64,000 nucleotides of DNA from the IMG/VR virus record IMGVR_UViG_3300009503_000955; one strand, written 5' to 3'. The position numbers were made by a program, and so were the translations under genes. The notes under the pieces were generated by a model, which worked only from the letters and a program-made list of their open reading frames with translations, had not been told where the DNA came from and did no database searches. The stretch is from an uncultured virus (IMG/VR IMGVR_UViG_3300009503_000955) (Duplodnaviria; Heunggongvirae; Uroviricota; Caudoviricetes). Below, piece after piece: positions 40,009 through 61,430 of this stretch. Each line of letters starts with the position of its first letter. Position 1 is the first letter of the stretch.

Positions 40009-40236
40009 ATGGGTAATTTAAAATGGTCAAATGAAGAAGTAAAATTGTTGAAAAAGATATATCCAAAATACATCACTGGAGAAATAACAAAAGAAGAAAT
40101 GGTTTCTATTTTCAAATACAGAACATTCACATCAATTAAATCAAAAGCTATATATTTAGGTTTATCTAATTACAAACCACCTGATTCGATAAATAGAAAA
40201 TTTTTATCACAATTAAGAAAAAGAATTAAGATTTAA
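40009..40236 (+). CDS. Small Myb/homeodomain-like HTH protein
   Basis: WSNEEVKLLKK.Y...RT..SIKSKA..LGL. Confidence 0.65.
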   Translation: MGNLKWSNEEVKLLKKIYPKYITGEITKEEMVSIFKYRTFTSIKSKAIYLGLSNYKPPDSINRKFLSQLRKRIKI

Positions 40237-40245
40237 TTTTGAAAA

Positions 40246-40737
40246 ATGAATATAAAAAGTCCAGATTTTTATTATACTAATGAGCAAATGGTTAAAGATT
40301 TATTAGCAATTACACCGATAGAAGCTAATGATAGTGTTTTAGATGCAGGTAGTGGTAAAAATAAAGTATGGTATAAAAATATACAAAATAAAGAAAAATA
40401 TGAATGTGAATTAGAAGAAGGATATGATTTTTTTAAATGGAATATAAAAGTTGACTGGGTTATAGGAAATCCACCATTTCAGGAAAATGGGAAAAACATA
40501 GTTCCATTATGGTTGGAAAAAGCATCAGAAATAGCAAATAAAGGAATGGCTTTTTTAATAAATCATAAAATATTTAATTTCTTAACACCTCGTAGGTTAG
40601 AAAATTTAAAACAAAAAGGGTTTTATTTAGAGAGAATTCATATTGTATCAGATAGAAGATGGTTTGGAAGATATTATTATTTAGTATTTACAAAAAAACC
40701 TAATACATTTCTGTCTTGGAATTTAAAAACATATTAA
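40246..40737 (+). CDS. Small amino (probably N6-adenine) DNA methyltransferase, gamma-like order
   Basis: Motif I VLDAGSGK precedes motif IV VIGNPPF. Confidence 0.85.
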   Translation: MNIKSPDFYYTNEQMVKDLLAITPIEANDSVLDAGSGKNKVWYKNIQNKEKYECELEEGYDFFKWNIKVDWVIGNPPFQENGKNIVPLWLEKASEIANKGMAFLINHKIFNFLTPRRLENLKQKGFYLERIHIVSDRRWFGRYYYLVFTKKPNTFLSWNLKTY

Positions 40738-40738
40738 T

Positions 40739-41740
40739 ATGTACAAATACAAAATTGAAGATATAGAAAATAAAATTTTATGTGGAGATGTATTTCAAGA
40801 ATTACAGAAGTTTCCTTCTAATGTAATAGATATGATTATAACAAGTCCTCCTTATTTCAATCAGCGTTCTTATTTGCCTGAAACTGATAAAAATAAAAAA
40901 TTTGAAATAGGATTAGAAGATAATCCACAAGAATATATTGATAAAATAGTATCAGTATGTTTAGAATGTGTAAGAGTTTTAAAAAATACAGGAGTTTTCT
41001 TTTTGAATATAGGAGATTTTTTTTATAACTCATCAATAAAACATAAAACTAATTGGTTAAAAGAAAAAGGAAAATTATTATTACCTATGAGAATTGCTAT
41101 TGCTCTGCAAGATAAAGGAGTATTAATTAGAGATACTATTATCTATGTAAAAAAATTAACAAAATATCCCGAAAAAGTATCTATTGGAACGACTTTACCC
41201 GCTTCAACAAAAGATAAGTTTTTACCAGCTTTTGAATATATATTTCAAATAGTTAAAAGTAAAAATTATTACTTTAATTTAGAGCCATTAAAAACAGAAA
41301 TAAAAAGAAGTCCTATAATAAGAACAAAATATCCAATAGTAGAAACTTATTCAGAAAATAGTTCTTATAAAAAGTCAATGTCTGGTGTTGAGAAGTTTAG
41401 AAGAAAATATTCATCTGCTTTTGAAGGTGATTCATGGAATCTTACATTAAAAAATCCTATATTTAGAGCCAATCCTACAAATGTTGTTATGTTTAAACCA
41501 AATAATCAATTTACTAACAATAAAGAGCATTACGCTCAATTTCCTGAAACATTAGTAGAATTTTTTATTATTGTAGGATGTCCTGAGAAGGGTATAGTAT
41601 TAGATCCATTTTTAGGAAGTGGAACTACTGCTATAGTAGCAAAAAAGTTAGGTAGAAAGTTTATAGGTATAGAATTATATGAGAAGTATTGTAAAGCAGC
41701 AGTAGAAAAAGTTGAAAATATACCAGAAAGCATGTTTTAG
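40739..41740 (+). CDS. Beta-class N4-cytosine/N6-adenine DNA methyltransferase
   Basis: ITSPPY, HYAQFP and VLDPFLGSGTT. Confidence 0.95.
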   Translation: MYKYKIEDIENKILCGDVFQELQKFPSNVIDMIITSPPYFNQRSYLPETDKNKKFEIGLEDNPQEYIDKIVSVCLECVRVLKNTGVFFLNIGDFFYNSSIKHKTNWLKEKGKLLLPMRIAIALQDKGVLIRDTIIYVKKLTKYPEKVSIGTTLPASTKDKFLPAFEYIFQIVKSKNYYFNLEPLKTEIKRSPIIRTKYPIVETYSENSSYKKSMSGVEKFRRKYSSAFEGDSWNLTLKNPIFRANPTNVVMFKPNNQFTNNKEHYAQFPETLVEFFIIVGCPEKGIVLDPFLGSGTTAIVAKKLGRKFIGIELYEKYCKAAVEKVENIPESMF

Positions 41741-41818
41741 GTAGTGTTTCGTAGATAATTATAAAGTTATCTATGCATTTCGTAGATAACTATAAGATTA
41801 TTCATAAAAGGGAGGTAT

Positions 41819-42622
41819 ATGATTAGAAAAATTGAAGTAAAGAAAAGTATTGCAGTAATATCAGATACTCATATTGGAGCGGAGAGAGGATTATTTTTAC
41901 CAGAGTGGGAAGATGAAGAGGGACATAAATATAAAGCAAGTAAATTTCAAATAAGGTTGTGGGAACACTGGCTATATTTTTTAGATAAATGTGATGAGTT
42001 TGGTGTTGATACAGTAATACATCTTGGGGACTTGATACAAGGATACAATAAAAAAGAGTGTGCAGAAAGGTTATTGATTTCAGATATGAACAAACAAATA
42101 GATGTTGCAGTTGAGATAATGAAGACAATTAAGAGAAATAGAAAATTTTTTATTGTATCAGGTAGTCCTTATCACGAGGCAAATGTAAAAATACACAAAA
42201 TACTTGCGGACAGAATAGGCGGAATTTACTGTGGATTTATTACTAATTTAGAAATAAAGGGATGTAATAGAACAATAAACATAGCACATAGTTTAGGTAA
42301 TTCTTCTGTTTATTTATCTACCGCTGTTGATAGAGAGATTTTATTTACGAAGTTTGCGGAAGGATTAGAGAAGATAACAGGAAAGATAGATTTACTTTTA
42401 CGAGGGCACCTGCATCACTTTTTAGAAATTCATCAGATAAAATGTAGAGGTATCCTTGTCCCATCTTGGCAAGGATTTGAAGGGTATAATTTAACTACAA
42501 AACTGTTTTCAAGAAAAATCCCTGATATCGGCGGTATTATTTTAGTATTTGATAAAGATAATAAGATTTATACTATACCATATTTGATGAATTATTCTTT
42601 TACTGATATTTTGCAAGTTTAG
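41819..42622 (+). CDS. Calcineurin-like metallophosphoesterase
   Basis: ISDTHIG, HLGDLIQG, GSPYH, IAH and RGHLH. Confidence 0.9.
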   Translation: MIRKIEVKKSIAVISDTHIGAERGLFLPEWEDEEGHKYKASKFQIRLWEHWLYFLDKCDEFGVDTVIHLGDLIQGYNKKECAERLLISDMNKQIDVAVEIMKTIKRNRKFFIVSGSPYHEANVKIHKILADRIGGIYCGFITNLEIKGCNRTINIAHSLGNSSVYLSTAVDREILFTKFAEGLEKITGKIDLLLRGHLHHFLEIHQIKCRGILVPSWQGFEGYNLTTKLFSRKIPDIGGIILVFDKDNKIYTIPYLMNYSFTDILQV

Positions 42623-42690
42623 GTCAACTTATTTTAGTTGACTTTACATTAGTCAGCCAAAAATGGTTGACGAAAAAAAGGAGGGGAAAA

Positions 42691-42885
42691 ATGGAAAAGA
42701 AGGTTAATGTAGCATTATGGTTTAATTCTACCGAGGATGGAAAAAAATGGATGTGGAGAGAAACAAAAACTTTTGATATAAATGAACCAATTTCTAAAAT
42801 TTATGATTGGTTTAAAACTTTTCAGAACAAAGAAGTTAAAATTTGTGAAATTGATTTTAAAAGGAGGCAAGAGGAAGAAAAATGA
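42691..42885 (+). CDS. Hypothetical protein
   Basis: AGGAGGGG SD before ATG 42691. Confidence 0.55.
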   Translation: MEKKVNVALWFNSTEDGKKWMWRETKTFDINEPISKIYDWFKTFQNKEVKICEIDFKRRQEEEK

Positions 42886-43207
42886 ATAAATATTCTTATG
42901 TTTTCGTCTGGAAAAATAATCCTATCAGAGAAAATTTTATAACAAAAAATGTAGAATAATAAAGAAAATGTCAATGAATAGTGTTATTTTAGAATTTGAA
43001 GATGGTGGATTTACACTTGAATATCAGTTAAATTTTCAAGATATAAAAGGAATTAAAAAAATAAATGGGACTTATGAAGAAATCTTACGAGGAAGAACAA
43101 TTAGAGGAGAATTAGTTGATGGACATTTTGTAGAATGGTGGGATAATTTTGAAGTTATTGGAAACATTTATGAAAATCCAAAACTTTTAAAGGAGGGGGA
43201 AAAATGA
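42882..43207 (+). pseudogene. Frameshifted/chimeric small gene ending in a YopX-type C-terminus
   Basis: ATG 42882 MNKYSYVFVWKNNPIRE joins the 42968 ORF by a -1 shift at A AAT TTT. The C-terminus FEVIGNIYENPKLL is the YopX signature. Confidence 0.5.
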
Positions 43208-43443
43208 GAAAAGGTGTAAGAAATATAAAATTTGACAAAAGAAGTTCACTTCAAAGTTATGCTTATGAATGGTTAAATAGCAGAGGTTTATTTGATGAAG
43301 ATGCAGGTTATGGAGGAATGTTGGGGGAAGCAGTTATGGAATTAGTAAAAGTATTTTCTAAACAAGGACATTCTGGATTTTCTGCCCAACTTACAAAGCA
43401 TCTATTCAATGAACTATTATCTGATTATGAAAATGGGAAGTAA
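43204..43443 (+). CDS. Conserved-looking phage hypothetical protein
   Basis: AVMELVKVFSKQGHSGFSA motif, SD and ATGA overlap. Confidence 0.65.
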   Translation: MRKGVRNIKFDKRSSLQSYAYEWLNSRGLFDEDAGYGGMLGEAVMELVKVFSKQGHSGFSAQLTKHLFNELLSDYENGK

Positions 43444-43444
43444 A

Positions 43445-43537
43445 ATGAGCGCAAATCGTTACGTTTACGTCTAGAAAATAATCCTGTCAGAGAAAAATTT
43501 TATAAGAAAAGATGTAGAATAATAAAGACAATGTCAA
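43445..43537 (+). pseudogene. Decayed second copy of the 42882 gene start
   Basis: About 80-bp direct repeat of 42896-42974 with TGG changed to TAG and a 1-nt loss. Confidence 0.55.
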
Positions 43538-43576
43538 CCAATAAAAGGTTGTAAAAAAGTAAGGGAGGAATAAATA

Positions 43577-45283
43577 ATGAAATTTGAAGAGATGATAAAT
43601 AAAATTCATTGTGCAGATTGTTTAAAATTTATGAAAGACATTCCAGATGAAAGTATTGACCTTGTTTTAACTGATCCTCCTTATAATATTAGTCAAAAAA
43701 ATAAAATATTTAGAGATTATAGAAGTGGCAAAAGAAGTGATATTAAAATGGATTTTGGTGAGTGGGATTATAATTTTCAAATAGAGCCATTTTTAAAAGA
43801 AGCAAAAAGAGTTTTAAATGATTTTGGAAGCATAATTGTTTGGACATCAGAACAACTTTACGGAAAATATAGAGAGTGGTTTGAAAAAGAAATGTATCCG
43901 AAACAACTACTTGTGTGGGTGAAATGTTTACACGGTCATACTAAACTATTAGCAAGAGTAAATGGAAAAGTGTCATTGACTACTGTAAGAGACTTATATA
44001 GAAGTAGTTATATTTTGGGAACTACTGTAGAACTATTAGCCCCTGAAAGAAAATGGGTAAAAGTGGTTAACTTTGTAGAAAACGATTCTATATCAGAAGG
44101 TAAAGTTATCTATTTAAGAAATGGAAGTAAAATTAAAGTTACAAATAATCATTATTTTCTGGTTAATAATATTTTAGTGCGAGCAAAAGATTTGAAAGAA
44201 CACGATATTCTGGATAATGGTAGCAACATTATCCAGGAAAATAAAGATTCTATATTGAGAAAAGAAGAAGGTTGGCTAATCGGTCTTTTTATAGCAAAAG
44301 GAAATTACCAGAAGGGTAATGAAATAAGATTCTTTTTAAATAAAAATGAAATTAATTTTTTTGAGAAGTTATCAAAGTTGACAGCTAAATATAATGGGAA
44401 TATAAGAAAACATATAAGCAAGGATGGTAATGGAATGGCTGTAATCATAAACAGTCATATTCTAACGGGATTGGTAAAAGAATTTGTAAAAGATAAGGGC
44501 TCAAAATACAAACACTTAAGCAATAATTGCTGGAATACAAATAAAGACTTTTTACAAGGAATATTCAAAGGATGGTTAGATGGAGATGGAAATTATGATG
44601 AAAAAGCAAAAAAGTGGATTGTAGAATTTGCAGTAAATACTAAATTAAATGATGATATGAAATTATTAGCAAATATACTAGGATATTCATATAAGAATAC
44701 GCACAAATTTGTTAATGCCTTTGGTAAAAGATTCAAAGTAATTCTATCACATATCAAAAAAGAGAGAACAGAACATTTTAATTCTAAAAGCGATTATGAA
44801 ATAATAAGAATAATAAACACAAAGTTAAAGTCTTATGAAATATCATTAGAAAATAATCATACTTTTTTATTATTTGATGGAACTATAGTTCATAATTCAA
44901 ATCCACTTCCTCAATTTCGGCTTGTAGGATATAGACAGGCTACAGAACTGTTATACTGGGCGTTAAAAAAGAAAAATACAAAAAATAATCCAAATTTTCT
45001 ATTTTTAAAACAATCAGAAATGACAAATGTTTTTTATGCTCCAATTGTAGGTGGAGAAGAAAGAACTATTCATCCAACTCAAAAACCATTATCAATTACT
45101 CAACAACTTATTATGAGACATTGCAGAGAAGGTGGTATAGTATTAGATCCGTTTTTAGGAAGTGGAACTACTGCAGTTGCCTGTAAACGGTTAAAAAGAA
45201 AATTCATAGGTATAGAAATTAATCCTGAATATTGTAGAATAGCAGAAGAACGATTAAAAAACGAGCCAGAACCGTTGTTTTAG
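43577..45283 (+). CDS. Beta-class DNA methyltransferase (DPPY) interrupted by an intein
   Basis: LTDPPYN in the N-extein. HPTQKP and DPFLGSGTT in the C-extein. Confidence 0.95.
   Translation: MKFEEMINKIHCADCLKFMKDIPDESIDLVLTDPPYNISQKNKIFRDYRSGKRSDIKMDFGEWDYNFQIEPFLKEAKRVLNDFGSIIVWTSEQLYGKYREWFEKEMYPKQLLVWVKCLHGHTKLLARVNGKVSLTTVRDLYRSSYILGTTVELLAPERKWVKVVNFVENDSISEGKVIYLRNGSKIKVTNNHYFLVNNILVRAKDLKEHDILDNGSNIIQENKDSILRKEEGWLIGLFIAKGNYQKGNEIRFFLNKNEINFFEKLSKLTAKYNGNIRKHISKDGNGMAVIINSHILTGLVKEFVKDKGSKYKHLSNNCWNTNKDFLQGIFKGWLDGDGNYDEKAKKWIVEFAVNTKLNDDMKLLANILGYSYKNTHKFVNAFGKRFKVILSHIKKERTEHFNSKSDYEIIRIINTKLKSYEISLENNHTFLLFDGTIVHNSNPLPQFRLVGYRQATELLYWALKKKNTKNNPNFLFLKQSEMTNVFYAPIVGGEERTIHPTQKPLSITQQLIMRHCREGGIVLDPFLGSGTTAVACKRLKRKFIGIEINPEYCRIAEERLKNEPEPLF
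43925..44896 (+). mobile_element. Intein with LAGLIDADG homing endonuclease domain (324 aa)
   Basis: WVK|CLHGHT (block A), VTNNH (block B TxxH), GLFIAKG and GWLDGDG (blocks C/E), IVHN|S (block G, Ser+1). Confidence 0.93.
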
Positions 45284-45287
45284 AAAT

Positions 45288-45653
45288 ATGGATTTAAAAC
45301 ATAATGTTTTAAAATGGGTTAAGGGAAAACCCACTGATATTGGTGGAGTAAAAGACGGTATTTTTTATAAATATTGGCAAAGTAAGAATATGTGCTATAA
45401 TCCAAAAGGAATTTCTATTTCTAAAGATGTTTTTGAAAAATATAAAGATAAATTTGATGAAATTGTAGTATTTATAGAAGATACAAACGAAGTCTATAAA
45501 GTTAAAAAAGACATATTTATAAAAAATTATAAAGTAGCTGATTTTGGAATGGGAGTAAATTATATTTTATCTACTAAATTTTGGGATAAAAGAAATAATA
45601 AAACAGGCCTTTGGGAAAAACCAACAACATTTGATGAACAAACTTTATTTTAA
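45288..45653 (+). CDS. Hypothetical protein ending QTLF
   Basis: Tightly packed in the methyltransferase operon. Confidence 0.7.
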   Translation: MDLKHNVLKWVKGKPTDIGGVKDGIFYKYWQSKNMCYNPKGISISKDVFEKYKDKFDEIVVFIEDTNEVYKVKKDIFIKNYKVADFGMGVNYILSTKFWDKRNNKTGLWEKPTTFDEQTLF

Positions 45654-45661
45654 CAATATAT

Positions 45662-46360
45662 ATGGATAAGTTTATAAATCAAATAATTTGTGGGGACTGT
45701 GTAGAAATTTTAAAAGAAATACCAGAGAGAACTATAGATTTTATTCTTACAGATCCTCCATTTAACGTTGGGATTGACTATGGAGAAAGTGAATATGATG
45801 ATAATATGAAAGATAATGAGTATGCAAACTGGTGCTATAAATGGATAGTAGAATGTTATAGGGTTTTAAAAGATAATCATTATTGTATAATATTTACAGG
45901 AGATAAAAAATTGTTTTATGTAGCAAAAGCTATTTATAATAGTAATTTTATATTTCATCATTTTTTAAAATGGTATAAACCAGGGTGTCAAAGATGTTTA
46001 TCAGGAACAGTATTTTTTAATAGAACAGAACTTGCTTTTATATTATCTAAAGATAAACCTAATATAAGTTTAATAGATAGAACTGTAATGTTTGAAGATA
46101 CTTTAAGATATAAAAACACCTCACCAAATCAAAAAGATTCTGTAGAACATAATTGTAGAAGACCTGTGGAATTATATTCTCATATAATTGCTGGATTTAC
46201 TAAAAAAGAAGATATTGTACTAGATCCATTTTTAGGTAGTGGAACAACAGCTATTGCTTGTAAAAGATTAGGTAGAAAGTTTATAGGTATAGAAATCAAT
46301 CCAGAGTATTGTAAGATTGCAGAAGAAAGATTAGATAACGAATCAGAACCTTTATTTTGA
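45662..46360 (+). CDS. Beta-class DNA methyltransferase (DPPF)
   Basis: LTDPPFN and VLDPFLGSGTT. Confidence 0.95.
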   Translation: MDKFINQIICGDCVEILKEIPERTIDFILTDPPFNVGIDYGESEYDDNMKDNEYANWCYKWIVECYRVLKDNHYCIIFTGDKKLFYVAKAIYNSNFIFHHFLKWYKPGCQRCLSGTVFFNRTELAFILSKDKPNISLIDRTVMFEDTLRYKNTSPNQKDSVEHNCRRPVELYSHIIAGFTKKEDIVLDPFLGSGTTAIACKRLGRKFIGIEINPEYCKIAEERLDNESEPLF

Positions 46361-46363
46361 AAA

Positions 46364-47179
46364 ATGTTAAAATATAAAGATGATTTTGTGGAAGTATGGA
46401 ATAATGATTCTAGAGATTTGTCTTTTATAAAAGATAAATCAGTTCATTTAGTTATAACATCTCCTCCTTATAATGTAAGAATGAATTATTCTGCTTATAA
46501 TGATGCTTTAGAATTAGATGAGTATTATAATTTATTAAGAGAAGTATTTTCAGAGTGTTATAGAGTTTTAGTTCCAGGAGGTAGAATAGCAGTAAATTGT
46601 CCAAGTTGCTGTCGGCAAACTACTGTTTCAAAAAATGCATTTGTTGCTGTAAATATACATAATATTTTAAAAGAAATAGGTTTCTTGCCAAGAGAATGGG
46701 TAGGCTGGGTGAAAGTTCCACCAATAGAAAATGAAACTGAGTATAAAGATATACATAGACATCAGAGATGGGGAAAGTCCACAAGTTGGGGGTCATGGTG
46801 TAGTCCATCCGATTCCTACTTGCGAGATGTTATGGAATATATAATAGTAATGTATAAAGAACAAAGTAATTTAGAAGGAGATAAAAATAAAATAGATATA
46901 ACTAGAGATGAATTTTTAATGTATTCTAATAATTGTTGGTTTATTTTACCAACAACAGAAAATAAGTCAGGACATCCAGCAGCATTTCCTGAAGAATTAG
47001 CTTATCGTTTAATGAAGTTTTATACTTATCAAGAGAATGTAATATTAGATCCTTTTGCAGGTTCAGGTACTGTAGGAGTAGTTGCAAAAAGATTTAAAAG
47101 AAAAGCTATCTTAGTTGAAATAGATAGTGGTTATTGTGATTTAATAAAACAAAAAGTAAGTCAAGAATATTTGTTTTAA
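46364..47179 (+). CDS. Beta-class DNA methyltransferase (SPPY, probably N4-cytosine)
   Basis: ITSPPYN, HPAAFP and ILDPFAGSGT. Confidence 0.95.
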   Translation: MLKYKDDFVEVWNNDSRDLSFIKDKSVHLVITSPPYNVRMNYSAYNDALELDEYYNLLREVFSECYRVLVPGGRIAVNCPSCCRQTTVSKNAFVAVNIHNILKEIGFLPREWVGWVKVPPIENETEYKDIHRHQRWGKSTSWGSWCSPSDSYLRDVMEYIIVMYKEQSNLEGDKNKIDITRDEFLMYSNNCWFILPTTENKSGHPAAFPEELAYRLMKFYTYQENVILDPFAGSGTVGVVAKRFKRKAILVEIDSGYCDLIKQKVSQEYLF

Positions 47180-47989
47180 ATGGAAAAAGATATTAATAAA
47201 TATATAAATCAAATAATAAATATGGATTGTGTAGAAGGGATGAGACTTCTACCTGATGAATCAATTGATTTAGTAGTCACTTCTCCTCCTTATGATGAAA
47301 TTAGAACTTATCATGGATTTAAATTAGACCTTCATAAAGTAGGACAAGAAATTTATAGAATACTTAAAAAAGGTTGTGTATCAGTAGTAGTTATTCAAGA
47401 CCAAACAATAAATTATGGGAAGACACTTACTTCTTTTAGAACAATAGTTGATTGGTGTGATAATATCGGTTTTAAACTTTTTGAATGTCTAATTTACAAA
47501 AAATATGGAGCAGAAGGAGCTTGGTGGAATAAAAGATTTAGAGTAGACCATGAATATATGCCTGTATTTCTTAAAGGAGATAAACCTATATATTTTAATA
47601 AAGAACCACTTAAAATACCTTCTAAATGGGGGGGAATTACTTTAACAGGTGGAGCTACTCGGCTTACTACTGGACAAACATTAAAAGCTAGACCTATAAA
47701 AATAAATGAAAAGAAATGTAGAGGAACTGTATGGGAATATTTAACTTGTGGAGATGGAGATAAATTAAAACATCTTCATCCTGCTACTTTTCCAGATAAA
47801 CTTCCTTATGATTTTATTCAATGTTTTTGTCCACCCGATGGGATAGTGTTAGATCCGTTTATTGGAAGTGGAACAACAGCTGTTGCTGCTAAAAAATTAG
47901 GCAGAAAGTTTATAGGTATAGAAATAAGTTCAGAATATTGTAAAATTGCAATACAAAGAATTGAAAATATATCAGAACTATTATTTTAA
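47180..47989 (+). CDS. Beta-class DNA methyltransferase (SPPY)
   Basis: VTSPPYD, HPATFP and VLDPFIGSGTT. Confidence 0.95.
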   Translation: MEKDINKYINQIINMDCVEGMRLLPDESIDLVVTSPPYDEIRTYHGFKLDLHKVGQEIYRILKKGCVSVVVIQDQTINYGKTLTSFRTIVDWCDNIGFKLFECLIYKKYGAEGAWWNKRFRVDHEYMPVFLKGDKPIYFNKEPLKIPSKWGGITLTGGATRLTTGQTLKARPIKINEKKCRGTVWEYLTCGDGDKLKHLHPATFPDKLPYDFIQCFCPPDGIVLDPFIGSGTTAVAAKKLGRKFIGIEISSEYCKIAIQRIENISELLF

Positions 47990-47992
47990 AAA

Positions 47993-48877
47993 ATGTATAA
48001 AATAGGAGATATACAAAATCAAATAATTTGTGGGAATTGTGTAGAAATTTTAAAAGAGATACCTGATAATTCATTTCATCTAGTTATTACTTCTCCGCCT
48101 TATTCTAACTTAAAACATTATTCTGATTTGAAAGATGATTTAGGAAATTTAGATATATATAATCAAATTCCAATTTTTGAAAATATTTTTAAAGAAATAC
48201 ATAGAATTTTACAAGCAGGTAGAAAGTTCATTTTATTTTTTTGTGATATTTCAATAAAAAAAGATGGTACATATTTTATAGAAAGTCCTACATATTTATT
48301 AATTCCAAAAATTTTAAATTTGGGAATTAATATAAAAAATATATTCATTTGGAGAAAACGTGGAAGTTTCAGTGTTTGGGGAAATAGTGGAACTCTTCCA
48401 TATCCACCATCTCCAGTTATTCGAAGTTATTTTGAATATATTTTTGTGTTTTGTAAGATAGGACAATCGGATTATTCTCATATTACAAAAGAAATTAAAC
48501 AAAGATCATTAATTCCTGTAAAAGATATAATGAAGTTTAGTGGGGTTTTAGATTTTGCTAATTCTAATTATCTTAAAAAAATTCATCCAGCTATTTTTCC
48601 TGAAGAATTAATAAGAAATTTAATAATGTTATATTCGTTTGTATCTGAAAATGTATTAGACCCATTTGCTGGAATAGGTACAGTTGGTATAGCTGCTAAA
48701 CAGCTAGAAAGAAATTATACTTTAATAGAATTGAATCCTAAATATGTAGAATTTTTTAATGAAAAAATAAAAAGTGAAAATTCTATCGTAGATAAAATTT
48801 TAGAAAGAGTTAAAATACTAAAAAACAGCAAAAAAAGTACAAAAGAACAATCTATTTTAGGTGATACATTATTTTAG
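47993..48877 (+). CDS. Beta-class DNA methyltransferase (SPPY)
   Basis: ITSPPYS, HPAIFP and VLDPFAGIGT. Confidence 0.95.
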   Translation: MYKIGDIQNQIICGNCVEILKEIPDNSFHLVITSPPYSNLKHYSDLKDDLGNLDIYNQIPIFENIFKEIHRILQAGRKFILFFCDISIKKDGTYFIESPTYLLIPKILNLGINIKNIFIWRKRGSFSVWGNSGTLPYPPSPVIRSYFEYIFVFCKIGQSDYSHITKEIKQRSLIPVKDIMKFSGVLDFANSNYLKKIHPAIFPEELIRNLIMLYSFVSENVLDPFAGIGTVGIAAKQLERNYTLIELNPKYVEFFNEKIKSENSIVDKILERVKILKNSKKSTKEQSILGDTLF

Positions 48878-48884
48878 AAATTAT

Positions 48885-48913
48885 TTGACAATATAGTGGT
48901 TTTTAGGTATAAT
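48885..48913 (+). promoter_or_regulatory. Consensus sigma70 promoter
   Basis: TTGACA (48885-48890), 17 nt, TATAAT (48908-48913). ATG follows at 48919. Confidence 0.9.
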
Positions 48914-48918
48914 ATACT

Positions 48919-49248
48919 ATGAGAGTTAAAAAGTTTTTAAGAATACTTAAAGATATACAGAAACAAGAGATAGATATAATTATTAATAAAAGTCATGATT
49001 ATGCTAATAAAGAAAATATATTTTCAAATTTTGAAATAGTATCTAAAATTGTAGGTTGTAATCCTGAAATTGTATTTTTAACTATGATTGGAATAAAAAT
49101 AGCAAGATTATCTGAATTATTAACTAATAAGAAAGTTCCTAAAAATGAAGCAATAGAAGATACTATTCTAGATATGCGGAATTATTTAGGGTTATTATAT
49201 GGATTTTTGAAAAATAATAAAAAAGGAGAAAAAAATGAAAAAAGTTAA
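48919..49248 (+). CDS. Nucleotide-modification-associated domain protein (DUF1599-like, all-alpha NTP pyrophosphatase-related)
   Basis: KSHDYA..NF..IKIARL..IEDTILDMRNY. Confidence 0.75.
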   Translation: MRVKKFLRILKDIQKQEIDIIINKSHDYANKENIFSNFEIVSKIVGCNPEIVFLTMIGIKIARLSELLTNKKVPKNEAIEDTILDMRNYLGLLYGFLKNNKKGEKNEKS

Positions 49249-54796: not shown

Positions 54797-54835
54797 ATAG
54801 TAAAAAATTATATTATCTTGTCTAAAGGAGGAAAA

Positions 54836-55504
54836 ATGAGAACAGATAAGTGGCAAATGTATATAGATATTTTACAAGGACATCCTTCTGTTTGTAAATC
54901 TTTTCATACTATAGATAGTATGAAATTTATAACAAAGCTTATTCCACCAAGTGAGTTTCCTAAAATGTTAGATATTGGAGTTGGGGAAGGATTAGAAACT
55001 AAGATTTTAAAAGATTTGGGATATAATGTTATAGGAGTAATAAAAGGAGAAGTAAATCTTAATTTTGCTAGAAAGAACTATCCTGGTATAGAATTTATTG
55101 AATGTGATATGCATGATTTACCATTTCCTTCAGAAACATTTAATGCTATTTATACAAATCATGTTTTTGAACATTCTTATGCTCCTTTTATTTTTTTATT
55201 AGAAATGTATTGTGTATTAAAACCTAAAGGAAGAATATGGATAGGTTTACCTGAATTTAAAGAAAAAAATGATCCAACAGCTAATCCTGATATAAATTTA
55301 GTTAATCATCATCATCCTAATATTCTTTGTAGTAATTTATATAGTTTATATTTTCAGAAATCTGGATTTAAAATTGTAAATCAAGGTTCAGTAAAAGGGA
55401 ATTCTTATTTTGATAATGCTTTTTTACTAGAGAAACAACCATTAGAGTTTGTGCATTCAGACGTGCAAACAGTAATTAAAAAAAGAAAAGAGTTATTTGG
55501 ATAG
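54836..55504 (+). CDS. Class I SAM-dependent methyltransferase (small-molecule/sugar type)
   Basis: MLDIGVGEG, CDMHDLPF, HVFEH and LKPKG. AGGAGG favours ATG 54836. Confidence 0.9.
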   Translation: MRTDKWQMYIDILQGHPSVCKSFHTIDSMKFITKLIPPSEFPKMLDIGVGEGLETKILKDLGYNVIGVIKGEVNLNFARKNYPGIEFIECDMHDLPFPSETFNAIYTNHVFEHSYAPFIFLLEMYCVLKPKGRIWIGLPEFKEKNDPTANPDINLVNHHHPNILCSNLYSLYFQKSGFKIVNQGSVKGNSYFDNAFLLEKQPLEFVHSDVQTVIKKRKELFG

Positions 55505-55513
55505 GAGGAGGAA

Positions 55514-56242
55514 ATGGATATATCTGTTATTGTAACTAATTGGAATAGACAACATTTTCTTTATGATATTGCTAAACAAATGAATGAACAAAAATTTCCA
55601 AAAGATAGATATGAAGTTATTTTTGTAGATGATGATAGTGTTGAAAAAGATGAAGTTTATTCTATATTTAAGAAAATACGAGAAAGTTATCCAAAGATGA
55701 ATTTAAAATTTATAGAAACTCACTTTTGTAAAACACAAAATCCTGCTTTTAGATATAATGTTGGAGTTCGACATGCTTGTGGTAAAATAATTATACTTAA
55801 TGAATCAGATGTTCTTCAACAAGGAGAATATCTTTCTAATGTCTATGAATATCTTTCAAAAGATCCAAATTTATATTTGAGCCCTACAGTTTATCATGTA
55901 AAAGAATCCGGTGAAGTAGAATTTGAAAATTTGAGATTTGAAACAGATTTAGGCTCAGCTTTGATGCGGGTTCATTTTGAAAAAGTACATGGATATGATG
56001 AGAATGTTTCCGGTTGGGGAGGAATAGAAGGAGATTTTATAAATCGTGTAAAAATGCATTGTAATCTTCGTTTATATCCACGAGCAAAAGGCCTTGTTGT
56101 TTATCATCATGGATGGACTTTTAAAGCTAAGCCTTATTTTGCAAAAATGATAGCTGGGCCTGGATCTGGCCCTAGAAATTGGGGCCCACCAAAAAGTAAT
56201 TCTTGGGGACTTTCAGATAAAGTAGAAGTTCTTTCAATATAA
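55514..56242 (+). CDS. Glycosyltransferase family 2 (with GT7C-like C-terminal motif)
   Basis: ISVIVTNWNR, EVIFVDDDS, NVGVRHACG and GYDE...WGGIEGDF..R. Confidence 0.9.
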   Translation: MDISVIVTNWNRQHFLYDIAKQMNEQKFPKDRYEVIFVDDDSVEKDEVYSIFKKIRESYPKMNLKFIETHFCKTQNPAFRYNVGVRHACGKIIILNESDVLQQGEYLSNVYEYLSKDPNLYLSPTVYHVKESGEVEFENLRFETDLGSALMRVHFEKVHGYDENVSGWGGIEGDFINRVKMHCNLRLYPRAKGLVVYHHGWTFKAKPYFAKMIAGPGSGPRNWGPPKSNSWGLSDKVEVLSI

Positions 56243-56259
56243 TAAATATAGGAGGATTT

Positions 56260-56793
56260 ATGCCAGCACCAAATGTTTGGGAAGTAGTAGAAAGTATTTT
56301 ACCACAAGGAAAGAAAAAGGTTATTGATATTGGTTGTGGAGAACAGTTAGCAATAGGACATATATGGAAGTTTAGTGATTACGAAATACATAGATGCGAT
56401 ATAAAAGATTTTAAAAATGTTCCAAATTTCAAAGTATGTGATTTAAATCAAAAGTTTCCTTATGCAGATAATGAATTTGATGGTGTTGTAGCTGTAGAAG
56501 TATTAGAGCATCTTGAAAATCCTAGACATGTAATTAGAGAATTTAAACGAATATCAAAAGAATTTATTGTAATAACTACTCCAAACTGTTGCTCTCCTGA
56601 GAGTAAAGATATTTTTAATAAAACAGGTTTCTTTAAGTACTTTGATATATATAAACCTTATGGACATATTACACCAATATTTCCTTGGATGATACATCAA
56701 ATTTGTGAAGAATTAAATTTAAAAATAAAGATTGAAACATTTAATAATCCAAAAACACAAGAAATATATATAGTTTATATTGAAAGGAGATAA
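56260..56793 (+). CDS. Class I SAM-dependent methyltransferase
   Basis: VIDIGCG, CDLN..FPY and EVLEHLENP. Confidence 0.9.
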   Translation: MPAPNVWEVVESILPQGKKKVIDIGCGEQLAIGHIWKFSDYEIHRCDIKDFKNVPNFKVCDLNQKFPYADNEFDGVVAVEVLEHLENPRHVIREFKRISKEFIVITTPNCCSPESKDIFNKTGFFKYFDIYKPYGHITPIFPWMIHQICEELNLKIKIETFNNPKTQEIYIVYIERR

Positions 56794-56795
56794 TA

Positions 56796-57064
56796 ATGAT
56801 TAACAAATTTGGAGATGGAATTAGTTGGGAAGCACATATAGAAGAAATAATACAAAAAAAGAATATCTTTCACAAAAAGGCATATTTTTTATGACAGAAA
56901 GTACTGTATCTATTGCTACTGCTATTCAAATGACTTATCAAAGATGGATAGATTTAGTTGAAAATTATGGATTTAAATTTTTAGAAAGTTGGCATGAAAA
57001 TGAGTTAGGATTACACGATCATTATCTTTTTCAAAAGTTTTTATTATTAAAAAATAAGGAATAA
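56796..57064 (+). pseudogene. Probable methyltransferase remnant in two frames
   Basis: SD plus ATG 56796 gives a 32-aa ORF. A AAA AAG at 56855-56861 links to a -1 frame resembling an MTase C-terminus (LSQKGIFFMTE..YGF). Confidence 0.4.
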
Positions 57065-57066
57065 AA

Positions 57067-57651
57067 ATGAAAGATTGGAGTTGGGAAAGAGATGATTTTG
57101 ATTCCAATGGTAAATTAATTCTTCTTTATAGACACCAAAGAATTATTACAGAAGGTTTAGTGAAAAAGGGAGATATTGTTTTAGATGTGGGGGGTTGGGG
57201 TAAGTTAGCTTATAGACTTTTTCAAGAAGGATGTTGTGTAACTTTAGTGAATAATGATAAGAACAAATGTGAAGAAATTAAATTAAAGTATCCAAATACC
57301 TTTAAAGTAATTTGTGGAGATGTAAGAAAGCTATCTTCTTTTATTAATTATACTTTTGATGTAGTAACCTGTTTTGAAACTTTAGAACATATTATTGAAG
57401 GTAGAAAACAAGCAATACAAGAAATTTTTTGTGTATTAAAACCAAATGGAGTTTTTGTAGGAACAGTACCAATACCTGGATACTGTCATCCAATAGACGA
57501 TCCTACAATATCTTTTTGTTATCCAGAAGAGTTAGAAGAATTGGTAAGACCTTATGTTTCTGAATTTAAGATTGAAAAGACTGCTTCTGTTAATCCTACT
57601 GGTGATTTATGTTGCTGGTATTTTTATGGAAGAAAATATAAAGCAAAGTAG
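57067..57651 (+). CDS. Class I SAM-dependent methyltransferase
   Basis: VLDVGG, FDVVTCFETLEHI and LKPNG. Confidence 0.9.
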   Translation: MKDWSWERDDFDSNGKLILLYRHQRIITEGLVKKGDIVLDVGGWGKLAYRLFQEGCCVTLVNNDKNKCEEIKLKYPNTFKVICGDVRKLSSFINYTFDVVTCFETLEHIIEGRKQAIQEIFCVLKPNGVFVGTVPIPGYCHPIDDPTISFCYPEELEELVRPYVSEFKIEKTASVNPTGDLCCWYFYGRKYKAK

Positions 57652-57707
57652 ATTGTCAAAGTTTTTTACAAAAGCTAGTTTTGACTGCGTTAAAATAGGA
57701 AATAAAA

Positions 57708-59699
57708 ATGGGATGGAGTAAATGGGAAACTTGTTGGAAAGGAGATGAAAAAAACCCTACTGGTGTTATACCAAAAGAATTATTACCTTGTGATTATTAT
57801 CAATATAGGTATGCTATACGAACGGAAATTGATCTTTCTAGTCTTGAAGGAAATGTATATAAAGAATTTACTGGAATATTGACAAATCATATTGGAAAAT
57901 CATATAAAGAAACTATATACCCTACATTTTTATTCGTTTATGTACCTTATCCATTAATACCTTTTCCTTATTCAACTTTGTTTTATTTTACACTTCAATA
58001 TTTAGATTATAAAGAAAAAAGAATTTTTTACAAATGGTTAGAATTAAATAACTTAGAAGAAGCATTAAAAGATAAAGTACAAAAAGAACAAACATTACTA
58101 TTCAATTTTAAAAAAAGTGAAGTAAAAATTGATAAAACTCCAAGTAATCTTTTTGTAGAATCACAAAATAATAAATTTTATATAGAATCTGATTTATTTA
58201 GCGCAACTGCAGGAAATCAAAATGTAGCAAAAGACTTATTAGAAGGAGAAGAAATTGAAATATTAAATGGAGATTATGTTGGTAAAAAATTTGAAATAAG
58301 GTCTAATGATGGTAAAGGCAAAGTATATTTTGATCCAAAAGACATAGATACTGGTGCTGAAATAGATTTTCAAAAACTTCCAGATGATACACAATTCAAA
58401 ATAAAACCAAAATATGCTTGGGTAGCTATAGGTGAAACAATCGGCGGAAAATTTAGTTGGTATGGTAATGAAAGGTATTCATTTGAAGGTGAAGCTGGAT
58501 TTGTATTTGAAACGCCTATTATGGGTCTTTTCTCATCTTTAACGGTTCCTTTTGTTGGTTTCTGGTATTCTAATATTATAAATACTATGTTAGCACCTGG
58601 AGACCAAGTTTGGATAGACCAACATAATTTAGGTATACCTGGACTAGGTCCAAAATATGCTTATTATGAAATTAGAACTACTGAAGCAGATAGACAGAGA
58701 GTATGTGGCATAAGAAAAAGAGATTGTTATGTTTATTTACTTTCTTATATAGATAACAAAGGTTATCTTAAAGTATTAGAAAAATCAATAGATGTTAATA
58801 CTCATTCATCTAAGACAAGAATAATAAATCTAGGTGGAAAAGAAGGTAAATATAGATTTCCAAATGTGTCACAATTTCCTTGGTTAGATTTATTTTTTGC
58901 TGTTCAAAATGAATTTAATACTTTTTTATATTTAGATTTTTCAAGATTAAACTTAGAAAAAACACCTGATTCAGCAGGATTAGAACCGTTGATTTTGAAA
59001 GATTTTATAGAACCGTTCTTTGTAGATATGGGAGACGAATTGGTTATGTTATGCAGAAAAAAAGATGAGTATATATATGCCTATAAAGTAAGTTTTACTA
59101 CGACAGAAGCGAAGAGTGTTATACCAGAAGGATATTGGCAATCTACAGAGAATTTAACATTATACGAATTATCTAATGTGAGTAAAATATTGGAAGAACA
59201 ATATTTTGAAGGAACACAAAGATTTTCACATGATTATAATATGTGGGGTGCTACCTATAGTAATAATAGTAATGAAGTTAGATTATGGTTTAAGTATGGA
59301 AATAGAATACAAGAATATAAAGCAAATAAAAGTTTTTCTATTATTTCTTACATAAGAACTATAAAAGGAATATTATCATTTTTTTGGGAAAAACAAGTTC
59401 CTAAAGGTATAGTAATGGTATATTCTTTTCCAGAAAATAAAAATCAATTATATTATGCATTTTTACCATATGATTTATCTATTTATGAAACAATTATTGA
59501 TGTAAATAAAAAAGATAAGATTGTAGTGAAAAAAAGCGAAAACGAAAAAGTAGAATATGATGTTGAAACTTTGCCTAAAGATATAAAACCTCCTATAGAT
59601 ATCATAAGTATAGAAGCTAGAAATGTAAGAGAACTTATTATTGCAAATAAAGATGGCTTTTGGAAAAGAGAAGCTGAGTGGGTTTGGAAAGAATTATGA
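57708..59699 (+). CDS. Large hypothetical, probably structural protein
   Basis: 663-aa beta-rich ORF. Its TGA stop overlaps promoter copy 4. Confidence 0.65.
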   Translation: MGWSKWETCWKGDEKNPTGVIPKELLPCDYYQYRYAIRTEIDLSSLEGNVYKEFTGILTNHIGKSYKETIYPTFLFVYVPYPLIPFPYSTLFYFTLQYLDYKEKRIFYKWLELNNLEEALKDKVQKEQTLLFNFKKSEVKIDKTPSNLFVESQNNKFYIESDLFSATAGNQNVAKDLLEGEEIEILNGDYVGKKFEIRSNDGKGKVYFDPKDIDTGAEIDFQKLPDDTQFKIKPKYAWVAIGETIGGKFSWYGNERYSFEGEAGFVFETPIMGLFSSLTVPFVGFWYSNIINTMLAPGDQVWIDQHNLGIPGLGPKYAYYEIRTTEADRQRVCGIRKRDCYVYLLSYIDNKGYLKVLEKSIDVNTHSSKTRIINLGGKEGKYRFPNVSQFPWLDLFFAVQNEFNTFLYLDFSRLNLEKTPDSAGLEPLILKDFIEPFFVDMGDELVMLCRKKDEYIYAYKVSFTTTEAKSVIPEGYWQSTENLTLYELSNVSKILEEQYFEGTQRFSHDYNMWGATYSNNSNEVRLWFKYGNRIQEYKANKSFSIISYIRTIKGILSFFWEKQVPKGIVMVYSFPENKNQLYYAFLPYDLSIYETIIDVNKKDKIVVKKSENEKVEYDVETLPKDIKPPIDIISIEARNVRELIIANKDGFWKREAEWVWKEL

Positions 59700-59793
59700 A
59701 ACTTTTTGCAACTTTGGAGCATCTAAATATATAGAAAGAAGAAAATGAAAATCTTGAAACTTTTTAGGTTCCAGGAGCATCTAAATATATAGA
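59698..59793 (+). promoter_or_regulatory. Tandem ECF-sigma-like promoter copies 4 (59698-59735) and 5 (59756-59793)
   Basis: 58-bp period, N8 spacers GCAACTTT and AGGTTCCA. Confidence 0.8.
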
Positions 59794-59809
59794 AAGAAGA
59801 AAATGAAAA

Positions 59810-60002
59810 ACGAGGAAGGCTATTTGGAAGTGATAGGACTTCCAATGGCTAACCTGTAAGCCAGTTCCTATCGCTGGTGATAAAGGGACAGGTGGACTGT
59901 TAAGTATTCAACTTAACAGACTGGGTTCAAATCCCACCGTTTCGGCTATGAAGTCGGCGGAGAGAGTGAAAGGCAAAACCTCACTTGCCAAACCTTCCTC
60001 GT
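59810..60002 (+). ncRNA. Candidate ~190-nt structured non-coding RNA with a T-loop element
   Basis: GC-rich island, terminal stem ACGAGGAAGG/CCTTCCTCGT, several internal hairpins, complementary loops, and TGGGTTCAAATCCCA. Confidence 0.75.
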
Positions 60003-60042
60003 AGGAAAAAGGGGAAAATGGAAACAAAAAAAGGAGGGAAAA

Positions 60043-60378
60043 ATGAAGAAAAAAGAAGTAAGAGAAGAGATTGAAAGAGAAATGAGAAAAGGATCTGCAG
60101 AAGAGGTCGACAAAGGGATAATTAGCGAAAAGATGAATAAGACAATTAGTGAAGAGATGACTGAGGAATCCCTTTTTCGTGGGCCTAGTTTTCTTGAAGG
60201 AGCAATTTTCATACAAATGGGACTTTCTCTTTTGCTTATATTTTTAGGTTGGTCATGTGGCGATAAGTTAATGTCTATTGTAGGGTTTACCTTAGGTGGG
60301 ATATTTATGTTAGGATTCATTTTTACTTTGTATTTTATGATTTATTTAGAAGTACATGAACGAAGCAAACAAAAATAA
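60043..60378 (+). CDS. Two-TM membrane protein
   Basis: SD and two hydrophobic helices. Confidence 0.65.
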   Translation: MKKKEVREEIEREMRKGSAEEVDKGIISEKMNKTISEEMTEESLFRGPSFLEGAIFIQMGLSLLLIFLGWSCGDKLMSIVGFTLGGIFMLGFIFTLYFMIYLEVHERSKQK

Positions 60379-60428
60379 AGAAGGAAAAAATGCTTCTAAA
60401 AATTGAAATTTGAAAAAAGGAGGAAAAA

Positions 60429-60644
60429 ATGAAGAAAAAAGATTTTATGCCTATCTTATTATTAATATCTATTTATATTTTATTCTCAGCAACATTAATT
60501 TTTCATTATATTATAAAAAATAATAACAGTATTTTAAAATACAATATAGAAAGAGATATAAAAATTTCAATAGATGATTTACAAAGAAATAAATGTGATG
60601 AAAATGCTATGGAACTTACATTAAAAAAACTAAATATAAAATAG
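60429..60644 (+). CDS. Single-TM hypothetical protein
   Basis: AGGAGG SD and N-terminal hydrophobic helix. Confidence 0.6.
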   Translation: MKKKDFMPILLLISIYILFSATLIFHYIIKNNNSILKYNIERDIKISIDDLQRNKCDENAMELTLKKLNIK

Positions 60645-60656
60645 AAAGGAGAAAAA

Positions 60657-60980
60657 ATGGATAATAAGATAAGAGATATAAGAAAGATTGATAAAATAGA
60701 AAGATTAAAGACGTTTTTGAAAAATGAAATAAGTTATTTAGAAAAAAATCTTTCAAGTAAAAACGATGCTTTTTTTCTTTGTGAATTGTATATGGCTTTG
60801 GAAGATATATCACCTTATATTGGAATATATATTCCAGAAACATTAAAGAATAAGTATAGAGATATACTAAGTAAGGTATCAATATATATGGATATTGTAG
60901 ATCAATTAGAAAAAATAATAACTGGAATGGAAGTTTTAAAAGAATCAATAAAAATAAGAAAAAGTGAATGGCCAAAATGA
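60657..60980 (+). CDS. Hypothetical protein
   Basis: AGGAG SD. Confidence 0.65.
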   Translation: MDNKIRDIRKIDKIERLKTFLKNEISYLEKNLSSKNDAFFLCELYMALEDISPYIGIYIPETLKNKYRDILSKVSIYMDIVDQLEKIITGMEVLKESIKIRKSEWPK

Positions 60981-60987
60981 GGGAAAA

Positions 60988-61287
60988 ATGAAGAAAAAAG
61001 AAGTAAGAGACGGAATTGAAAAAGAAATGAAAGAGATGAGAAAAGAAAAAATTGTTAAGATTTTTCACAAGTATTGTTCTAGGTCTTCAGATAATAAAGG
61101 TGGTTGTTTTTTACCAAGTTCTAAATATGATGAAGTGGCGGAAATGATTGTTAGTGAAATAGTAAAAATGCTTAATAGAATAAAGCGGAAGGTAAAACAA
61201 TTAGTTTTTTTAGATGATTTAGATAGGAGAGATATCAATTGGGTAATTAACGAAGAAATAAAAAAGTTAAAAAAAGAAAAGGAGTAA
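60988..61287 (+). CDS. Hypothetical protein sharing its N-terminus with 60043
   Basis: GAGGG SD and MKKKEVR start. Confidence 0.6.
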   Translation: MKKKEVRDGIEKEMKEMRKEKIVKIFHKYCSRSSDNKGGCFLPSSKYDEVAEMIVSEIVKMLNRIKRKVKQLVFLDDLDRRDINWVINEEIKKLKKEKE

Positions 61288-61289
61288 AA

Positions 61290-61421
61290 ATGACAGAAGA
61301 GGAAAAAAAGAAATTATTAGCAGAATTAATTCAAAAACAATTAAGGAAACAATTTGAGAAGAAGTTAAAGGAAAAAGTAGATAAAGAAGATTTAGTTAAT
61401 TGGGCAAGAAAAGAGAAATAG
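61290..61421 (+). CDS. 43-aa helical protein (not in the ORF track)
   Basis: AGGAG SD. MTEEEKKKLLAELIQKQLRKQFEKKLKEKVDKEDLVNWARKEK fills the gap exactly. Confidence 0.55.
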   Translation: MTEEEKKKLLAELIQKQLRKQFEKKLKEKVDKEDLVNWARKEK

Positions 61422-61430
61422 GGAGGAATA

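Follow-up and report, generated by a model that had tools for sequence, protein, structure and literature searches.

C-terminal Leu-Phe tails in a block of phage DNA methyltransferases and their possible docking on a sliding clamp

The 64,000-nucleotide (nt) stretch of the uncultured virus record IMGVR_UViG_3300009503_000955, hereafter the window, carries at positions 40246-48877 a block of DNA methyltransferase genes, and each of the six sure methylases of this block ends in a short acidic peptide closing with Leu-Phe or Met-Phe, as does an unrelated protein of 121 amino acids (aa) encoded among them. Comparable tails were found on many homologues of these enzymes, and the pooled tails gave a Q-x-[S/D]-L-F logo close to the published consensus of beta-clamp-binding peptides. 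The reading that we favor, to which we assign a probability of roughly 0.45, is that the tails dock the methylases on a sliding clamp. We infer all three of its parts, namely docking on a partner, the clamp as this partner, and co-replicative methylation. The window genes and their products are denoted below by the first nucleotide of the gene, and their positions are collected in Table 1.

In a count of terminal LF across the window proteins, of the kind that an earlier note on this DNA had proposed, seven of the 69 non-nested plus-strand open reading frames (ORFs) of at least 50 aa were found to end in [LM]F (six in LF and one in MF), and all seven lie within the block; three other ORFs end in Phe, preceded by Val, Asp, or Val. 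The seven tails are all acidic and terminate at the Phe itself. The C-termini that the earlier note had read for the six methylases, the last of which stands about 30 aa farther out than usual, and for the non-methylase 45288 protein were confirmed as listed in Table 1.

Judged from the homologues, such a tail is not special to this phage and is a family-wide feature. The 45662 enzyme has 6824 homologues at E up to 1e-10, and short extensions past the last helix were present in many of the 120 that were listed. An alignment (A1) of 71 sequences, comprising the query, 66 of the 120 homologues, and four window paralogues, was used to draw samples by an equal procedure, taking the best 80 loci for each. 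The 25 aa following the last helix contained an [LM]F dipeptide in 27 of 86 viral methylase ORFs (mean of 6.6 and maximum of 14 in 1000 shuffles), in 13 of 80 cellular genome ORFs (shuffle mean 4.9), and in 23 of the 87 closest metagenomic homologues (shuffle mean 10.6), a set from which 33 of the 120 had been dropped for not matching the motif-I pattern. Terminal [LM]F in the 84 viral loci was about 25 times commoner on methylases (8 of 84 ORFs) than on other ORFs of 80 aa or longer (4 of 1078), at least two of these four resembling methylases missed by the motif pattern. The earlier note had held that its proposal would fall if terminal xLF were equally common in other phage proteins, which was not what these loci displayed.

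That the tails have no role at the protein level, and reflect either chance or a nucleotide constraint such as a U-rich TTR-TTT-stop placed before a coupled start codon in an AT-rich genome, was judged highly improbable. The layout of the block would suit a constraint of this kind, as the methylase genes lie 0-8 nt apart without Shine-Dalgarno sequences, at junctions reading TTRTTTT(A/G)R, then an A-run, and then ATG. However, Q-x-x-L-F, often with residues beyond it, is retained in homologues of high-GC phages and of different gene neighborhoods, the last methylase carries LF even though the next gene starts 42 nt downstream behind its own promoter match, and the enrichment is far above both the shuffles and the other ORFs.

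The pooled set contained 324 distinct C-terminal regions, 73 of which had the [LM]F dipeptide. In the logo of these 73 tails, Gln occupies position -4 in 37 (background 4.9%) and Leu position -1 in 67, while position -2 is Ser, Asp, or Thr in 35 (14, 13, and 8, respectively) and motif position 2 varies (G 11, E 10, P 10, K 8, L 7). The beta-clamp-binding consensus is given, in the available part of a review on clamp binding, as QL(S/D)LF or more broadly as Q-phi-x-[L/M]-[F/L] (PMC11139829), and the family logo matches this consensus of bacterial clamp clients at four of five positions. This closeness of the Q-x-[S/D]-L-F logo to the consensus supported a clamp-like character of the tail at the family level. 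Endings of the form SRQLSLF-stop occur in four uncultured phages (loci L110, L116, L121, and L122), and the methylase of S. pneumoniae phage phiARI0468b-3, the gene of which adjoins that of a single-stranded DNA-binding protein (SSB), ends in NAQLSLFDEV. In a second set of cultured-phage homologues, biased by having been chosen for homology to a tail-bearing query, all six carried an [LM]F-bearing tail and five carried it as Q-x-x-[LM]-F; the cultured phages with the latter form are Rhizobium 16-3, Pseudanabaena Pan3, Tetrasphaera TJE1, Tenacibaculum JQ, and Gordonia PhorbesPhlower. A spread of Q-x-x-[LM]-F across phyla would fit a partner that is itself conserved across phyla, and for the family as a whole, a Q-x-[S/D]-L-F tail that recurs across phyla on DNA enzymes often encoded in phage replication modules is most simply read as a clamp-docking peptide.

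Two further kinds of tail were noticed during these searches. A 155-aa non-methylase ORF family in the IMG/VR loci L138 and L151 ends in ..SPTQVGLFD, which resembles the clamp motif. Separately, a subgroup of close metagenomic homologues (P0002, P0052, P0063, P0076, P0105, and others) carries L-x-x-[WF]-[FVW] tails (for example ..KLERWF) in place of LF. These are reminiscent of PCNA-type motifs, and tail type might track clamp type, archaeal versus bacterial. No tail resembling the PCNA-interacting protein (PIP) motif was present in the five archaeal genome homologues, and an IMG/VR scan seeded with the PIP-like subgroup returned another subfamily.

The tails could also be docking peptides for a hub other than a clamp, which we consider distinctly unlikely. 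Such a hub might be a polymerase or helicase of the phage itself, a pocket that binds SSB tips, a chaperone or protease adaptor, or a capsid-packaging partner through which the methylases would enter virions. Phage and bacterial SSBs and helicases use acidic C-terminal tips with a final aromatic residue, and the seven window tails, acidic and ending exactly at the Phe carboxylate, are similar to these; their poor match to the E. coli clamp consensus and the presence of such a tail on the unrelated 121-aa neighbor point the same way. An SSB-type tip closes the protein with hydrophobic-Pro-Phe behind an acidic stretch and needs the free carboxylate. The window tails are acidic and Phe-terminal, but Pro-Phe is found in none of them. 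Moreover, residues often follow LF in the homologues, and because only 25 of the 73 tails stop at Phe, a mechanism based on the terminal carboxylate fails family-wide. At Q, S/D, L, and F the pooled logo corresponds specifically to the clamp consensus, and no candidate partner was visible within the window.

Several observations weigh against docking on a clamp, and the case for the window tails is weaker than that for the family, as the former keep only [LM]F and the acidity. In contrast to bacterial clamp clients, the window tails lack Gln at motif position 1 in six of seven (S, P, S, P, G, and E; the 46364 product, QEYLF, has it) and an aliphatic residue at position 2 in all seven (E, E, E, E, E, D, and Q), whereas positions 4-5 conform to [L/M][F/L] throughout (LF in six and MF in one). 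By the published definition they are poor clamp motifs, fitting at [LM]F only, and the earlier description of a clamp-binding-like tail is supported at the level of the family logo, the window tails missing two of the three motif features. A 159-nt 3' module running from motif I to the stop codon is common to four of the methylase genes, with 70-81% nt identity among the copies, and the last 50 aa of these four enzymes are 62-86% identical, as compared with 29-43% over the whole proteins. Because of this common module the four tails are paralogous copies rather than independent ones, leaving about three independent tail lineages plus the 121-aa protein. The tail was absent in five of the first six cultured-phage homologues sampled and in all five archaeal genome homologues. 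In addition, no clamp gene was detected in the 64-kb window by profile searches including Pfam and PHROGs. On the other side, the same review describes Gln as important yet not necessary, and negative charge nearby or a free C-terminal carboxylate as favorable (PMC11139829), features with which the acidity and the terminal Phe carboxylate of the window tails would accord.

Whether the tail belongs to the fold was approached with an AlphaFold2 (AF2) model of one of the six enzymes, 45662 (mean predicted local distance difference test score, pLDDT, 93.2). Its last helix spans residues 214-225, the block 221-230 has a mean pLDDT of 89, the five residues opening the tail (226-230) are at about 83, and the final two drop to 58. 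The model superposed on CcrM (6pbd) with a VIA Z of 29.2 and a root-mean-square deviation of 2.3 A over 227 residues, on M.BceJIV with a Z of 28.9, and on M.MboIIA with a Z of 26.6. The structural alignments to RsrI, TTHA0409, CcrM, and rotifer N4CMT reach model residues 230-232, so that the start of the tail may take a course known from solved enzymes. Together with the pLDDT of about 83, this suggested that the tail may for the most part run along the surface of the domain, a further point unfavorable to clamp docking. Likewise, the spacing from helix to tail is fixed within each subgroup and the motifs N-[IT]-x-E and [IV]-P-E are conserved, which a clamp motif does not explain and which hints at a role in cis.

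The tail could instead be an inherited cis element, a post-helix cap with its Leu-Phe packing on the enzyme's own surface, on a dimer partner, or near the cofactor pocket, in which case paralogy would explain the recurrence of the tail and the likeness to clamp motifs would be coincidental. Beta-class methylases are known as dimers, and the shared 159-nt module, the fixed helix spacing with its conserved motifs, the well-modeled residues 226-230 covered by the structural alignments, and the lack of the clamp-motif Gln and aliphatic residue in the window tails all count for such an element. Nevertheless, we regard it as rather unlikely. M1.HpyAVI (5hek, 5hfj), a solved member of the family, ends a few residues after the last helix, and folds and works without a tail. 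Depending on the subgroup, the Phe falls 7, 9, or 11 residues past the conserved Arg of the last helix, and about 30 further in 47993 owing to its spacer, which makes one fixed intramolecular pocket unlikely. The same ending also stands on the disordered tail of the unrelated 121-aa fold, and the strong enrichment of Q at -4 and of S/D at -2 would not be predicted for a simple hydrophobic cap. Because the solved homologues lack the tail, the pLDDT of its tip is low, and the distance to the Phe varies, we conclude that the tail is dispensable for the fold and that the LF tip, which may pack on the surface, lies outside the core. An assignment of LF to motif III, the core strand of the cofactor site, was dropped, as M1.HpyAVI ends before LF and the AF2 model has LF as coil.

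In the reading that we favor, the block is a battery of six diverged beta-class DNA methyltransferases and a minimal seventh that counters restriction. Each PF01555 enzyme carries a short post-helix extension ending in [L/M]F-COOH, which would act as a short linear peptide for docking and be the homologue of the Q-x-[S/D]-L-F tails found on many phage methylases. The clamp so hooked would be either the beta clamp of the host or a phage clamp encoded outside the window; DnaN domain 3 was found in none of five viral records whose methylases have QLSLF or QQTLF tails, only one of these records being complete. New phage DNA would be methylated at the fork before the host restriction enzymes meet it, and the 121-aa neighbor, possibly of nuclease-like fold, would use the same hook. 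More broadly, and still more tentatively, phage beta-class DNA methyltransferases may constitute a large unrecognized class of sliding-clamp clients tethered by Q-x-[S/D]-L-F, and in this phage the six methylases and the small protein of putative nuclease fold would share the tag and take turns on the clamp. No further clients were evident in the window, because Q..[LM]F occurs four times in its 70 proteins against 2.5 expected.

Table 1. Positions of the methylase block and associated features in the window
Feature	Position	Strand	Details
Methylase-like core, 163 aa	40246..40737	+	FYT.., DAGSG, and NPPF motifs; ends NLKTY, no LF tail
PF01555 DNA methyltransferase, 333 aa, SPPY	40739..41740	+	Tail IPESMF, nt 41720-41737; Pfam E 4.3e-48; PADLOC MTase_II E 6.8e-59
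Tad3-family ORF (type I Thoeris inhibitor), 79 aa	43204-43443		Pfam E 6.9e-13, 48.9 bits (cut-off 27); first half of profile
PF01555 DNA methyltransferase with intein, 568 aa (extein 244 aa), DPPY	43577..45283	+	Tail EPEPLF, nt 45263-45280; Pfam E 2.4e-36 in two stretches
Predicted intein, 324 aa, residues 117-440	43925..44896	+	Cys1, two LAGLIDADG-type motifs, end His-Asn (C117...HN440), Ser+1 = S441
Non-methylase protein, 121 aa	45288..45653	+	Tail DEQTLF, nt 45633-45650
PF01555 DNA methyltransferase, 232 aa, DPPF	45662..46360	+	Tail ESEPLF, nt 46340-46357; Pfam E 3e-48
159-nt 3' module (motif I to stop), reference copy	46214..46372	+	Repeat family D1; other copies 41594-41752, 45137-45295, 47843-48001
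PF01555 DNA methyltransferase, 271 aa, SPPY	46364..47179	+	Tail SQEYLF, nt 47159-47176; Pfam E 2.2e-40
PF01555 DNA methyltransferase, 269 aa, SPPY	47180..47989	+	Tail ISELLF, nt 47969-47986; Pfam E 2.3e-41; PADLOC oMTase E 8e-44
PF01555 DNA methyltransferase, 294 aa, SPPY	47993..48877	+	About 30 aa of extra spacer, then tail LGDTLF, nt 48857-48874; Pfam E 5e-32, domain end at residue 256
Sigma-70-type promoter match, TTGACA-17-TATAAT, 12/12	48885..48913	+	Consensus match only; between last methylase and ORF 48919

As summarized in Table 1, six ORFs of the block matched PF01555 (N6_N4_Mtase) with 112-165 bits against a cut-off of 26.7 (E 5e-32 to 3e-48). All six display the permuted motif order of the beta class, with (D/S)PP(Y/F) early and DPF.GSGT (the FxGxG loop) late, and D188, F190, and G192 are invariant across the 71 aligned sequences. 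They also match PADLOC models of type II or orphan methylases, NCBIfam giving methylase hits below the cut-off only. Pairwise identity among the six is 29-43% over the full length. By the motif rule, which we take to be SPPY for the N4-cytosine type and DPP[YF] for the N6-adenine type, four of the enzymes are probably N4-cytosine and two N6-adenine methylases. The 40246-40737 product reached 21.7 bits with PF07669 (Eco57I), under the cut-off of 25.3, and matched phrog_799 'DNA methyltransferase' (E 3.8e-13) but not PF01555; it has no target-recognition domain, nor room for one at 163 aa. The seven amino-methyltransferases counted in 8.6 kb by the earlier note should accordingly be read as six firm members and a probable seventh, which rests on the PHROG match and a sub-threshold Pfam score.

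The block is interrupted by a metallophosphoesterase ORF, a YopX-like ORF, and an ORF of the Tad3 (anti-Thoeris) family, and the company of the methylases and the Tad3-like gene suggests an anti-defense island; the promoter match behind the last methylase would mark its end. No nuclease family was matched among the 14 ORFs of 40009-49248 with Pfam, or with PHROGs, NCBIfam, and PADLOC for subsets of them. A methylation battery directed against restriction, as the earlier note had it, fits six diverged type II methylases with no recognizable nuclease partner and a Tad3-like gene alongside. Two intergenic copies of about 65 nt containing TGTAGAATAAT, 90-92% identical to each other, were also observed, one at 42913-42980 before ORF 42968 and the other at 43475-43543 before ORF 43577; these are possibly duplicated promoters.

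The 121-aa protein matched no family in Pfam, PHROG, NCBIfam, or PADLOC, and relaxing Pfam to E up to 1 for this protein and six homologues gave nothing but one chance hit at 0.11. These six distant homologues (29-34% identity) came from an exhaustive HMMER search of 1.8 billion representatives, a word-based search having returned near-identical copies only, and two of the six have LF-bearing tails past the conserved domain (..QQGLLFG and ..KTLFN). In its AF2 model, a folded domain extends from residue 1 to about 105, while residues 112-121 have pLDDT below 50 and the tail is disordered. The fold leads, none of which is significant (Foldseek best E 4.5e-3; VIA-align best Z 4.8; Atlas 0.87-0.88 with a bar of 0.9), all lean to PD-(D/E)xK restriction-endonuclease-like folds such as D212, NhoI, DpnI, and PvuII, with the DpnI cluster at 0.88 in Atlas. 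No conserved catalytic motif was seen in the protein and its homologues. From these model-based leads, the protein might be a nuclease or a methyl-DNA reader within the methylase block, and the label of orphan methylases is tempered by them; the absence of a recognizable restriction partner, as claimed earlier, is borne out at the level of nuclease profiles and is qualified by these weak fold leads.

A feature that the earlier note did not contain is an insert in the 43577-45283 methylase, located after the conserved W-x-K. Its profile scores were 26.4 bits with TIGR01445 intein_Nterm (cut-off 24.5) and 34.9 bits with PF14890 (cut-off 35.8, hence just under). An intein-free allele of 244 aa (P0097), from a related metagenomic contig, is 97-98% identical to both exteins with an exact gap at the insert, and has Thr where the intein-bearing allele has Ser at +1. 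By its sequence, the segment 43925-44896 is an intein with a homing endonuclease, and splicing is predicted.

The window is a fragment of a tailed phage, with 27% G+C, all genes on the plus strand, and tail, tape-measure, fiber-like, amidase lysis, and sugar-modification genes together with an SNF2 helicase. It is probably part of a 74,427-nt contig that encodes identical proteins, about 10 kb of which lie outside the window. Close relatives were not found among 50,697 phage records, either by nucleotide match or by capsid and tail-tube protein match. Its Amidase_2 endolysin, together with strong Shine-Dalgarno sites, indicates that the host is a bacterium. No tRNA genes were found in the window; among named sequences, the epimerase comes closest to a Methanofastidiosum protein (39%), which says nothing about the host, the amidase search of Atlas returned viral clusters only, and a search outward from the SNF2 helicase in metagenomes reached only a relative at 54%, which ends at the gene. 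SPPY in four of six enzymes and a composition with (E+K)/(Q+H) of about 4, from which a growth temperature of 47-59 C was roughly estimated, hint at a warm-habitat host, although this estimate cannot tell a thermophile from a low-GC host because low G+C alone could yield such a composition. Elsewhere in the window, three class I S-adenosylmethionine methyltransferases of non-DNA type, a family 2 glycosyltransferase, and an NAD-dependent sugar epimerase/dehydratase are clustered at 54818-62369 and may act in glycan or surface modification. At 132-2810, an 892-aa protein has a C-terminal part matching a PHROG annotated as phosphoheptose isomerase (E 1.2e-22), which is unusual beside structural genes.

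Restriction acts within minutes of the entry or synthesis of DNA, which makes it a practical question how the solitary methylases of phages keep pace with replication. If correct, a clamp tether would explain this, and would add DNA methylation to the client activities of the bacterial clamp. It would also provide, as LF to AA, a one-residue-pair handle on the timing of anti-restriction in tractable phages, such as with the S. pneumoniae prophage enzyme (QLSLFDEV) or p097 of Rhizobium phage 16-3. A bacterial or phage methyltransferase tied to the beta clamp through such a motif was not found by full-text literature searches, subscription journals lying outside their scope, and the word methyltransferase does not occur in the available part of the clamp review (PMC11139829). 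Clamp docking of phage methylases is, in our view, a plausible reading that we did not find in print.

Among systems already characterized, the solved beta-class enzymes CcrM (6pbd), M.BceJIV (8urk, 9c3s), M.MboIIA (1g60), M.RsrI (1eg2), and M1.HpyAVI (5hek) share the fold and motif order of the window enzymes, 45662 aligning to the solved set with E-values of 2.7e-24 to 2.9e-11. They differ at the C-terminus, where CcrM has a large additional domain, M1.HpyAVI stops right after the helix, and no sequence alignment to Protein Data Bank (PDB) chains extends into the tail. [quoted passage not shown] The RB69/T4 polymerase similarly inserts a hydrophobic C-terminal peptide on a flexible tether into a crevice of the clamp gp45, in the accessible text of another review (PMC2705854); this likeness would apply if the phage brings its own clamp, and a gp45-like gene was not found in the 64-kb window.

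With regard to methylation in step with replication, M.EcoGIX and M.BceJIII are, by description, mobile-element methylases that resemble the window enzymes as envisaged here. M.EcoGIX co-purifies with DNA polymerase I, which its authors propose to be mediated by another host protein, adding that the sliding clamp is bound by Pol I (PMC7736820). Unlike the window enzymes, both are single-strand-specific and reside on conjugative plasmids, and no tail motif is described for them in the accessible part of that report. The position of B. subtilis DnmA near the replisome was explained by substrate availability, the word clamp being absent from the available part of the paper (PMC9973331). The one methyltransferase-clamp case mentioned in the accessible part of a further review is DNMT1, tethered to PCNA by a PIP motif (PMC9690074). 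DNMT1 belongs to the C5 class, uses another clamp and motif, and performs maintenance methylation rather than protection from restriction, so that it is a functional analogy only and no relative of the window enzymes; like them as envisaged here, it is a methyltransferase coupled to a replication clamp, by which nascent DNA is methylated at once (PMC9690074). Should the docking of the phage tails on a clamp prove right, these methylases would represent a prokaryotic counterpart of DNMT1-PCNA.

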